Shown here in pieces: positions 15,714-17,640 of a stretch of DNA of 27,895 nucleotides (position 1 is the first letter of the stretch; the number at the start of each line of letters is the position of its first letter). Both the position numbers and the translations under genes were made by a program. Below the pieces are notes generated by a model. That model made no database searches. It was given only the letters and a program-made list of their open reading frames with translations, and was not told the DNA's origin. The stretch comes from Verrucomicrobiia bacterium (lineage in GTDB: Bacteria; Verrucomicrobiota; Verrucomicrobiia; Limisphaerales; Palsa-1400). The stretch lies in contig DASXZW010000024.1 of assembly GCA_036501665.1 (NCBI GenBank), positions 1-27,895 on the forward strand. The letters are read 5' to 3'.

Positions 15714-17640
15714 GCTGGTCCACACTTACTTTTCGCTCCAGCGCCAAGCACAGTCAGGTGGTAGGCTTGGCACGATCCACTTCGGGAATGGAGGCAAGGT
15801 TCAGACCCCGGCTCTGTTCCCGGCCATTTGCATTATGACCGGCCCCCCCGGTTTTGGCCGTCAGGGCTCGCACTACAAGTACATCAAACGCATTATGTGC
15901 CGCGAGTGGCACCACAATCATTTCCTGACTGAGATCCTCCACTTTGCGGACTATATGGCGACAGCCAAATCATTGAATGCATGGCTGATCAAGCCATTCC
16001 ATCTCTGGATGGATGAAATGATGCGTGGCGGCAATGTGTCCAATCAGGACCAAGGCGATGATTTTGATTACGAACCGGGCCGGGCATACGAAGCCTGTTT
16101 TTTCCTCGACTCAGGCGGGTTTAAACTCCTTTCGAATAGTGATTTCAGCATTCAGAAATTCGGTTATGAAACCAGCCCAAAAAACATTCTCGACCTCCAG
16201 ACCCACATGGGCGGGGATATTATTGCGTCCCTCGACTACCCATTGGCCCCGTTGGATTATGATCATAAGACCCTGGCTCAATTGCAAAACAAGAGCCTCG
16301 ACAACGCCGTCTGGCTCCTTAAACAAATTGCCGACCGAGGTAGCAAAGGGCCGCGCCCTTTAGTTTACTTGGCGGTCCACGGCATAGATTGCGAATCTGC
16401 CCACGACTGCACTGAGCGCCTGCTGCAAAAACTCGACTCAGGAAATTTTCAATATGAGGCATTCGGATTCGCCATCGGCTCACTAGTGCCGCGCCGCAGC
16501 AATCGCGCTCTTGTTGCGAGTATTGTAAAAGGCGTCGTTGATGCAATCCACGATCATCACAACGGTCGTTATATCGAAAAGCCCGTCCATGCTTTCGGCA
16601 TGTCCGGAGACCTCATCCCGACCCTTACAATGCTCGGTGTGGACACCTTCGACACCAATGCCTTTGTCCAAGGTGGCAAAAATCTGCGGTATATCTTGCC
16701 CCCGCGAGGGGCAAACCTCTCCGTTCGTGAGACTAGGTCTATCGACGAACTTTCGTTGGATACCCTCCGCACATGCGGCTGTCGCGCCTGTACCAGATAC
16801 GAAAAACTTCTCAATCCATTTAAGCAACTAGCTCGCATGGAGAGAGACACTCGCCATAAAATTAAGGGGGTTGGCCGTCACCTGATCAAGTCCGAGATCT
16901 ACGCTTTCCTGGCGCTTCACAACCTCGAAACCGAATATCGGGAAATTGAGGCAGTAAAAGCCGAAATTCTGAACAACACTCTGCCAGCCTACGTCCGCTC
17001 TTACGCCGAGCGCGCCAATCACCGTGGAACTCTCATCCGGGCATACGAAGCCGCCACCGGTGAGTTCGTCCCCCGCACGACTGGCAGACGGGTTTCCCTG
17101 GAGCTTACGCGGGAATCTTTTGGCATCTCAGACACGTACCGCCCCCCAGAGGATAAAGAAATCCTGATTTTTCTGCCTTGCACAAAAGATAAACCTTATA
17201 GTAGCGCGCGCTCCCACCAGGCGATTCGCGGGGCGCTCAACAAAGACCCACGCATACACATTGTCACCATCTCTGGCCTCTATGGCCCTGTACCGGAAGA
17301 GTTGGAGCAGGAACCCGAAATCCTCCAATATGACTACGTTCTGTCACCCGAAGCGAAGGAGCAATCGAACGCCATCACGCGACGATTGAGCGAATATCTG
17401 AAGCGGTTCGGCACCCATTACAAGACCATCGTCGCTTACGTCACCACCCGCGCGTACCGTCACGTTGCAAAGCAAGCACTCCGGGCTTATGGACGTGGCG
17501 TGTTATTGCCCACGGCGCCAAAAGAACAAACATCCAAAGAATTTCTCCGATACGAGAATATTCGTGAGCTCCAGACAACTTTGGCACCACACATAGAAAC
17601 CTCAAAATCACTTGATGCATACCAAACCCTGAACACTTAA
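15706..17640 (+). CDS. dpdA: DNA-guanine transglycosylase-like TGT-family protein (DpdA-like) fused to a C-terminal ArcS/DUF5591-type domain
   Basis: TGT hallmarks:
- VQTPALFPA
- FFLDSGGFKLLS (compare TGT DSGGFQ)
- GFAIGSLVP
- HAFGMSGD...LGVDTFDT
- Zn site CGCRAC...LALHNLETEY

An extra ~180 aa follows, containing LPCTKDKPYSSARSH. The start at 15706 (MSRLVHTYF..) was chosen over 15544. Confidence 0.85.
   Translation: MSRLVHTYFSLQRQAQSGGRLGTIHFGNGGKVQTPALFPAICIMTGPPGFGRQGSHYKYIKRIMCREWHHNHFLTEILHFADYMATAKSLNAWLIKPFHLWMDEMMRGGNVSNQDQGDDFDYEPGRAYEACFFLDSGGFKLLSNSDFSIQKFGYETSPKNILDLQTHMGGDIIASLDYPLAPLDYDHKTLAQLQNKSLDNAVWLLKQIADRGSKGPRPLVYLAVHGIDCESAHDCTERLLQKLDSGNFQYEAFGFAIGSLVPRRSNRALVASIVKGVVDAIHDHHNGRYIEKPVHAFGMSGDLIPTLTMLGVDTFDTNAFVQGGKNLRYILPPRGANLSVRETRSIDELSLDTLRTCGCRACTRYEKLLNPFKQLARMERDTRHKIKGVGRHLIKSEIYAFLALHNLETEYREIEAVKAEILNNTLPAYVRSYAERANHRGTLIRAYEAATGEFVPRTTGRRVSLELTRESFGISDTYRPPEDKEILIFLPCTKDKPYSSARSHQAIRGALNKDPRIHIVTISGLYGPVPEELEQEPEILQYDYVLSPEAKEQSNAITRRLSEYLKRFGTHYKTIVAYVTTRAYRHVAKQALRAYGRGVLLPTAPKEQTSKEFLRYENIRELQTTLAPHIETSKSLDAYQTLNT

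Follow-up and report, generated by a model that had tools for sequence, protein, structure and literature searches.

The stretch of DNA analysed here, called the window, comprises 27,895 nucleotides (nt) of contig DASXZW010000024.1 (assembly GCA_036501665.1) from a Verrucomicrobiia bacterium. It carries a gene for a 644-amino-acid (aa) protein in which a tRNA-guanine transglycosylase (TGT) domain is followed by a DUF5591 domain, the C1-type domain of the archaeosine synthase ArcS. The gene stands on the plus strand in the order queF, queC, queE, queD, folE2, ParB_N, TGT-DUF5591, a gene for a 132-aa Cys-motif protein, and then a module of ATPase, PLD and BrxC/D-like genes. The features of the TGT-DUF5591 gene are as follows.

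15706..17640, plus strand: TGT-DUF5591 gene, 644 aa, proposed bifunctional DNA 7-deazaguanine transglycosylase and nitrile-tailoring enzyme (Pfam TGT and DUF5591)
15706..17061, plus strand: TGT catalytic domain of the arcTGT lineage, about residues 1-452, with D135 (FLDSGGF), D177 (LDYP), D316 (GVDTFD) and the Zn site C357/C359/C362/H405
17125..17547, plus strand: DUF5591 or ArcS C1-type domain, residues 474-614 (Pfam, phmmer and fold match)
17176..17217, plus strand: ArcS signature PCTKDKPYSSARSH, of the form PC-X3-KPY-X2-A-X2-H, which aligns to the true ArcS motif

The mechanical open reading frame (ORF) spans 15544..17640 on the plus strand. The ATG at 15706 is the likely start and gives an 8-nt overlap, stop codon included, with the upstream ParB-like gene (ATGAGTAG), and a similarly tight junction, overlapping or abutting, joins the two genes in homologous loci. 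Pfam places TGT (PF01702) at residues 131-436 of the 644-aa protein (E 2.9e-17); residues 474-614 match DUF5591 (PF17884) with E 1e-19 and 71.3 bits, the cut-off being 26. The Zn site is formed by C357, C359 and C362 of CGCRAC together with H405 of HNLETEY. The initial annotation of the window, made from the letters alone, had described a complete TGT core with its Zn site, continued by a tail of about 180 aa; the catalytic residues are indeed intact, and ~190 residues lie beyond the last TGT helices. The protein stops ~30 residues past DUF5591, without a C2 domain, and gives no Pfam match to a PUA domain. The ArcS-like motif that had been pointed out at 17176..17217 lies exactly there and fits PC-X3-KPY-X2-S-X2-H except for one Ser-to-Ala change.

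The C-terminal domain and its relatives

The assignment of the tail as an ArcS-type C1/DUF5591 domain is upheld by sequence (Pfam, phmmer, NCBIfam and profile comparison) and by fold. In a phmmer search of PDB sequences the domain resembles 2q07 (AF0587; E 4.6e-6), and PCTKDKPYSSARSH aligns residue for residue on PCTARKPYLTSRTH. We take AF0587 to be that half of the split Archaeoglobus ArcS which comprises C1, C2 and PUA. Modelled in full with AlphaFold2 from a 62-sequence family alignment, the window protein has a mean predicted local distance difference test score (pLDDT) of 89.6, and the best Foldseek match of this model in the PDB is arcTGT (1iq8; 2.6e-21 over 577 columns). Modelled alone, residues 455-644 reach a pLDDT of 92.7. 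The sole significant PDB match of this segment is again 2q07 (E 6e-7, probability 1.0, 145 columns). Among viral models (BFVD) the segment finds R9TEI9, the DUF5591 protein of Vibrio phage nt-1, that is, ArcS2 (E 1.3e-6, probability 1.00, 169 columns, template modelling score 0.57). With these matches to 2q07 and nt-1 ArcS2, the domain proves related to ArcS and DUF5591, the relationship on which the initial annotation had staked its proposal.

No match came from a tblastn search of 50,697 phage records with the C-terminal domain; the link to phage ArcS2 is at the level of fold only. In a scan of 1.84 billion cluster representatives the domain had only 349 matches at E<=1e-3, made up of proteins with a fused TGT, stand-alone ones of ~180-300 aa and, at a greater distance, ArcS-like proteins. 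Stand-alone relatives of this size occur among the closest matches.

A word-indexed search of 5.8 billion proteins retrieved 269 relatives of the TGT-DUF5591 protein. Among the matches listed, all 120 carry both TGT and DUF5591; they measure 425-675 aa, most of them 600-670. The family, which databases name 'tRNA-guanine transglycosylase', occupies at least 141 loci in species genomes from six or more lineages. In the alignment of 62 sequences (30-79% identity to the window protein), D135 (FxDSGGF), D177 (LDYP), D316 (GVDTFD), C357, C359, C362 and H405 are invariant. The three Asp match essential residues of DpdA and TGTs, namely the acid/base residue, the one for base recognition and the nucleophile (PMC10164549). 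The base-pocket segment GSLVP, with its invariant columns GS-VP, is kept with or without queF in the locus and resembles GGVVP of the arcTGT specific for 7-cyano-7-deazaguanine (preQ0) (PMC5699537). The C-terminal domain is constrained as well: C492, K496, P497 and Y498 never vary and >=90% of the sequences keep H504, which lifts the ArcS motif far beyond chance. A second invariant block contains SG-YGPVP, Y584 and R585. The Ser position of the motif is held by S or A by turns within the close clade.

By NCBIfam, the best model for the window protein is ArcS alpha (NF040592; 88.1 bits against a cut-off of 440), followed by arcTGT (TIGR00432; 64.6 bits against 350), and neither cut-off is reached. 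The family profile, compared with the PDB, finds arcTGT (1iq8, 4e-34), bacterial TGT (1e-11) and AF0587 (1e-11), and no DpdA. The PADLOC DpdA models match neither the window protein (E<=0.01) nor its orthologue P0026 (E<=0.001). PADLOC does contain DpdA models, since the second TGT of a haloarchaeal locus (L007) matches one at 3e-6 and served as a positive control. The TGT half, which had been called DpdA-like, thus falls in the arcTGT/ArcS lineage and not with bDpdA. What it has in common with bDpdA is the TGT fold and the three invariant active-site Asp (D135, D177 and D316). By membership, as judged from sequence, the window protein is neither ArcS nor bDpdA, but an arcTGT/ArcS-lineage protein predicted to keep both chemistries.

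For a comparison with true ArcS we used proteins that exceed the NCBIfam ArcS cut-off (P0219, 801 bits; P0240, 665; P0209, 445). ArcS (NF040592, Euryarchaeota) and the window protein share the order of a TGT-like N-domain followed by C1/DUF5591 and the PC-X3-KPY-X2-S-X2-H signature. Their 8-sequence alignment has 25 invariant columns, with GVDxxD, the Zn site and the core of C1 among them. However, true ArcS lacks the FxDSGGF segment with the acid/base Asp and the LDYP segment, whereas the window protein has a complete transglycosylase site. True ArcS also runs on for ~180 residues into C2 and PUA, while the window protein ends after C1. ArcS acts on tRNA with RaSEA as its partner; for the window protein, which belongs to a defence island, the partner is of ParB type and RaSEA is missing. 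Of solved structures, arcTGT (1iq8) comes closest to the N-domain; the two share the Asp triad and the Zn site and have similar pocket segments. In contrast, arcTGT bears a C1-C2-PUA tail, and the window protein is without C2 and PUA and has a C1 of the ArcS type. Since TGT followed by C1 is the domain order of ArcS itself, the 'fusion' of the initial annotation is better read as inherited architecture, and the size of the family shows that it is no one-off.

Gene neighbourhood in the window and in homologous loci

The genes that flank TGT-DUF5591 are listed below.

10810..11274, plus strand: QueF, ~154 aa, a preQ0 reductase of NADPH-dependent type (Pfam 2.1e-30; catalytic Cys in SLCPVTCQPD, and ETKSLKLY)
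11271..11975, plus strand: QueC, preQ0 synthase (Pfam 4.6e-61)
11977..12669, plus strand: QueE, radical S-adenosylmethionine (SAM) 7-carboxy-7-deazaguanine (CDG) synthase (Pfam Radical_SAM; CNLRCNWC cluster)
12666..13148, plus strand: QueD, PTPS family (Pfam 5.9e-27)
13145..13960, plus strand: FolE2, GTP cyclohydrolase IB (Pfam 8.3e-92)
14217..15713, plus strand: ParB_N protein, 498 aa, its gene translationally coupled to TGT-DUF5591, proposed NTPase partner analogous to DpdB, with GERRLRAA and a Cys-rich middle (Pfam ParB_N 8.7e-25)
17714..18112, plus strand: small protein of 132 aa whose C-terminal part carries CxxxxC...CxxC; in all class-1 loci (defined below) it is conserved as the next gene downstream
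18125..19327, plus strand: sigma54/RtcR-PspF-type AAA+ ATPase, first gene of a putative restriction module (Pfam 1.7e-28; PADLOC RtcR_PspF2 1.5e-37; syntenic in L001-4 and L089)
19481..20011, plus strand: PLD-family nuclease-like protein (Pfam PLDc_2 and RE_NgoFVII; PADLOC ZacB 5.6e-11 and DrmC)
20200..24903, plus strand: four genes, namely an AAA_22-like ATPase (20200-21336), a mad8/HerA-like ATPase (21346-22746) and two unknowns (22743-24032 and ~23953-24903), syntenic in L001-4 and L089
24900..27895, plus strand: BrxD-like ATPase (24900-26207) and BrxC/D-like ATPase (26198 to the window end, truncated) (Pfam BrxC_BrxD 6e-46 and 1.4e-23; PADLOC BrxD 8.2e-39)

The queF gene (10810..11274), the ParB-type partner and the conserved small gene (17714..18112) had gone unmentioned in the initial annotation. 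Its remark that neither a second radical-SAM gene nor dpdC is visible agrees with our searches: QueE gives the only Radical_SAM match among the main window ORFs and the related loci, with no RaSEA-like second gene, and DUF328, the DpdC family, has no match in the window (Pfam, PADLOC) or in class-1 loci. The queF-like gene was also considered as a QueF-L amidinotransferase and rejected, as it retains the NADPH motif of true QueF. The nucleotide-binding motif of the ParB_N partner is the classical ParB GERRLRAA, not the DGQQR of DpdB, and its Cys-rich centre, with several CxxC and CxxxC pairs, suggests metal binding. The 132-aa protein belongs to no Pfam or PADLOC family. A kinship with DUF6884 or DpdC was tried and set aside: a hidden Markov model (HMM) made from its orthologues finds nothing beyond class 1. 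The modification module probably has this protein as a third component. The putative restriction set (18125-27895) matches no complete known PADLOC system.

The left part of the window (543-9107) has genes for an HNH-like and an HTH_17 protein, for a TrwC relaxase-helicase (2989-5808, minus strand), for ParA and for a coupling protein of TrwB/TraD type. The presence of TrwC, ParA and a type IV coupling protein at this end indicates that the modification-restriction island travels on an integrative and conjugative element (ICE) or a plasmid. Rfam has nothing at the gathering threshold across the window, nor at E<=1 over 10500-10850, and ARAGORN finds no tRNA gene in the window; nothing thus points to a preQ1 riboswitch or to integration at a tRNA. 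A promoter/terminator consensus scan of the window did not rise above shuffled expectation.

We surveyed seven homologue loci and 79 loci from species genomes, which fall into three context classes. Class 1 spans 48-97% identity, and among named genomes a Verrucomicrobiae metagenome-assembled genome comes closest, at 76%. The constant set of this class is the preQ0 genes, ParB_N, TGT-DUF5591 and a small protein of the 132-aa type, and the ParB_N gene lies directly upstream of TGT-DUF5591 in every class-1 locus and in L091. What follows downstream is the window-type ATPase/PLD/BrxD module in L001-4 and L089, and a canonical set of Dpd-type restriction genes in L005/6 and L090. In L005, PADLOC recognises DpdE (4e-135), DpdF (1e-156), DpdG (1e-8) and DpdH (1e-64), and DpdE/F/G/H-type genes stand next to orthologues of 48% and 61% identity. 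Linkage to DpdD-K is not seen in the window itself; it takes the form of DpdE/F/G/H in L005/6 and L090. The orthologous loci bearing DpdE/F/G/H contain no DpdA, DpdC or RaSEA, and class 1 as a whole has no DpdC and no second radical-SAM gene. The queF gene, which stands first in the que operon of the window and of the closest loci, is kept in the three closest loci and is absent from L089, L090, L005/6, L091 and the haloarchaeal class. In L090, a DpdE-H-type locus, a gene of the nucleoside 2-deoxyribosyltransferase family (8098-8475) lies between folE2 and the ParB-type gene; QueE was not called in this locus.

In L091 (36% identity, 2017-5909), ParB_N and TGT-DUF5591 are accompanied by a Vut_1/YhhQ-family protein, a member of the preQ0 transporter family, and the locus has no biosynthesis genes and no obvious restriction genes. 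This suggests a minimal version, a modification module fed by salvage. Class 2 consists of 20 haloarchaeal loci of ~32% identity, megaplasmids included, with queC/E/D, TGT-DUF5591, DUF6884, a DpdA-like TGT and HATPase genes. In these loci (L007, 11962-13693, and 19 others) TGT-DUF5591 is found near DUF6884 and the second, DpdA-like TGT, and in about half it is directly upstream of both. Class 3 comprises Poribacteria, Cyanobacteria and Chloroflexota, where a DpdJ-like helicase (1e-63) often follows.

Proposed mechanism and its alternatives

We consider it probable, with moderate confidence, that the TGT domain and the ParB partner insert preQ0 into DNA and that the C1 domain tailors its nitrile in cis, so that one protein replaces DpdA and DpdC and forms the modification half of a Dpd-like 7-deazaguanine restriction-modification system on a conjugative element. 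FolE2, QueD, QueE and QueC, identified by homology, would make preQ0. The arcTGT-type domain with its coupled ParB-type NTPase would then replace guanine in DNA by preQ0, in the manner of DpdA with DpdB, to judge from the intact catalytic residues and the context. The C1 domain would attack the nitrile of the inserted deoxynucleoside (dPreQ0) through the invariant Cys, Lys and Tyr and the near-invariant His, and the ammonia or amine it adds would yield 2'-deoxyarchaeosine (dG+) or an N-substituted amidine, in the stead of DpdC. Tailoring may lock the base against reverse exchange, as preQ0-Lys formation does in tRNA, and the downstream ATPase/PLD module would attack unmarked DNA.

The basis for this reading is that both domains are real, their catalytic signatures are strongly constrained and the context is conserved. 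The absence of PUA and C2 RNA-binding domains, as far as sequence comparison tells, counts for it as well. The initial annotation had suggested that base insertion and tailoring may be combined in one DNA-directed enzyme, and the context strongly backs this idea: orthologues lie between a preQ0 supply with a ParB-type protein and DpdE/F/G/H genes, with DNA as the presumed target. Work on archaeal ArcS bears on the probable order of the two steps. T. kodakarensis ArcS is active on preQ0 nucleoside, nucleotide and RNA fragments and inactive on the free base, and its product is not exchangeable back by ArcTGT (PMC11298593). Tailoring after insertion is favoured because this enzyme ignores the free base, and the resistance of its product to back-exchange gives a rationale for the single chain, in which tailoring would lock a reversible exchange.

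The Dpd modification module of Salmonella Montevideo consists of DpdA, DpdB and DpdC, and DpdA requires the ParB-superfamily ATPase DpdB (PMC10164549). The locus resembles Dpd in its preQ0 supply, a TGT-fold transglycosylase, a ParB-superfamily partner, a nitrile-tailoring enzyme and then restriction genes. It differs in that the transglycosylase falls outside the PADLOC DpdA models, the partner carries GERR and not the DndB-like DGQQR, DpdC (DUF328) is replaced by the fused C1 domain, and the restriction module of the window is not DpdD-K. The other precedent is viral. In E. coli DNA, dPreQ0 inserted by DpdA2 of Vibrio phage nt-1 becomes dG+ when ArcS2 of this phage is co-expressed (Cui, Hutinet et al. 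2023, PMC10516641 Table 3). This pair likewise combines a transglycosylase and a DUF5591 core, which together give dG+ in DNA. In contrast to the window protein, where DUF5591 is fused to the transglycosylase, phage ArcS2 is a stand-alone protein beside DpdA2. The phage system thus consists of two separate viral proteins with an anti-restriction role and no ParB partner, whereas here a single polypeptide is cellular or ICE-borne and accompanied by restriction genes.

Several points weigh against our proposal. The motif in the window is imperfect (Ser to Ala), and the P0026 clade has S-C...KPY..S..R, with both Pro to Ser and His to Arg. The choice of DNA rather than RNA as the target is drawn from gene context alone, the role of the ParB-type partner, likely a DpdB analogue, is assigned by analogy and in the face of its GERR in place of DGQQR, and the restriction module of the window is uncharacterised and putative. 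T. kodakarensis ArcS gives only preQ0-Lys and needs RaSEA for archaeosine (G+), and no RaSEA is present here. The yield of phage ArcS2 was just 4-7 dG+ per 10^6 nucleotides (PMC10516641). Finally, the window island and its closest relatives carry a true QueF, so 7-aminomethyl-7-deazaguanine (preQ1) may be the inserted base, which complicates the prediction of the product; ArcS chemistry requires a nitrile. The candidate products are dG+, an amine adduct and dADG (2'-deoxy-7-amido-7-deazaguanosine); the deoxynucleoside of preQ1 (dPreQ1) is possible given the true queF.

Within the proposed tailoring, the product might be a stable N-substituted amidine on DNA, an amino-acid or polyamine adduct of the preQ0-lysine type. 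Such an adduct is possible because no RaSEA removes the donor and the best-studied ArcS transfers lysine, not ammonia. It would be a new natural DNA base that one polypeptide writes in one pass and two interchangeable restriction modules read; we regard this version as a long shot.

The QueF question leads to the first alternative, in which QueF reduces preQ0 to preQ1, the TGT domain inserts preQ1 into DNA, and DUF5591 has a role other than that of ArcS, be it structural, in DNA binding or on the aminomethyl group. The QueF of the window (10810..11274) has both the catalytic Cys and the NADPH motif, and queF is retained in the three closest loci. In addition, viruses that encode QueF carry dPreQ1, and DpdA2 of such a phage inserts preQ1 (PMC6884629, PMC10516641). 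We nevertheless hold this route to be doubtful. The loci without queF (L089, L090, L005/6, L091 and the haloarchaea) keep the ArcS motif and GSLVP invariant, the conservation of the catalytic Cys, Lys and Tyr in 62 diverse sequences speaks against a merely structural domain, and L091 pairs a TGT-DUF5591 enzyme with a protein of the preQ0-transporter family. QueF may alternatively support queuosine in tRNA, as opposed to dPreQ1 in DNA.

Another explanation keeps the nitrile and changes what becomes of it. C1 could be a DpdC-like hydratase that turns the nitrile of dPreQ0 into an amide, so that the product would be dADG as in canonical Dpd systems and not an amidine. The C1 domain does take the place of DpdC in clusters that retain DpdE/F/G/H. 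DUF6884 is distantly related to DUF5591 (hhalign E 2.8e-5) and weakly matches the PADLOC DpdC model (1e-4), and a phage 'YaaA' was also retrieved by Foldseek with the C-terminal domain (1.2e-3). An amidohydrolase activity has moreover been raised for phage ArcS (Hutinet et al. 2019, PMC6884629). However, the only DUF5591 enzymes tested make amidines, the archaeal ones a Lys adduct or G+ and phage ArcS2 dG+ (PMC10516641, PMC11298593). The links to DpdC are weak and indirect, and the window protein itself matches no PADLOC DpdC model. A hydratase therefore seems unlikely to us. Because DUF6884 aligns with DUF5591 and weakly matches DpdC, the three domains, DUF5591, DUF6884 and DpdC (DUF328), may form one superfamily of nitrile-tailoring domains.

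The two steps might also occur in the reverse order, with C1 first making the G+ base from free preQ0 and the TGT domain inserting G+ into DNA afterwards. A fusion could channel its substrate either way, and Gat-QueC of phage 9g may act either before or after insertion (PMC6884629). We find this very improbable, since T. kodakarensis ArcS is inactive on the free preQ0 base (PMC11298593) and the G+ base is not a substrate of canonical arcTGT (PMC5485725). Least credible of all is an RNA enzyme, an arcTGT/ArcS-like protein of bacteria whose product is archaeosine or a relative in tRNA and whose place in a defence island is due to chance: its closest characterised relatives, arcTGT and ArcS, do all act on tRNA and the database family is named for tRNA-guanine transglycosylase, but the protein is without a C2 or PUA domain, scores far under the NCBIfam equivalog cut-offs (88 against 440; 65 against 350) and is consistently coupled to a ParB-type DNA-binding protein, Dpd helicases and other defence genes on mobile elements and megaplasmids.

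If in-cis tailoring of inserted preQ0 is true, cellular 7-deazaguanine restriction-modification was built at least twice from different TGT lineages, once as bDpdA with DpdC and once as an arcTGT/ArcS-derived single protein. For the evolution of ArcS, the family would offer a form between arcTGT and ArcS, with a transglycosylase predicted to be of the fully active type and bearing the ArcS catalytic domain. The proposal predicts dG+ or a related amidine beyond phages, in the DNA of Verrucomicrobiota, Poribacteria, Chloroflexota, Cyanobacteria and haloarchaea. It would also allow a direct test of whether tailoring serves to make base exchange irreversible, and the combination of a single modification module with two unrelated restriction modules would be a natural experiment on how the mark is read. 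In practical terms, a one-protein writer of a tailored deazaguanine, used with its ParB partner, would be an attractive tool.

Parts of this picture are already known, namely DNA-directed ArcS-type chemistry by the stand-alone phage ArcS2 and Dpd systems. Hybrid defence systems with TGT or 7-deazaguanine modules have recently been proposed as BRC (PMC12839542) and as the haloarchaeal BRIGADE (preprint PMC12458937). Like the window, they combine a 7-deazaguanine/TGT module with non-Dpd restriction ATPases, BREX-type included, or with PLD nucleases. BRC differs in having PglZ, DUF6079, HerA and GNAT, and neither ParB nor a tailoring enzyme. The main texts of PMC12839542 and PMC12458937 do not mention a TGT-DUF5591 protein. 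In the searchable literature, whose coverage is incomplete and does not prove novelty, we found no description of such a protein, and the term DUF5591 occurs in one work only (a paper and its preprint). The haloarchaeal TGT-DUF5591 loci probably correspond to BRIGADE systems.

One further locus has an arrangement of its own. On plasmid NZ_CP119784.1 of Haladaptatus sp. YSMS36 (L088, 8992-13691), two convergent genes for 'tRNA-guanine transglycosylase' proteins of ~650-670 aa enclose one small hypothetical gene, and tblastn finds three matching places in this record.

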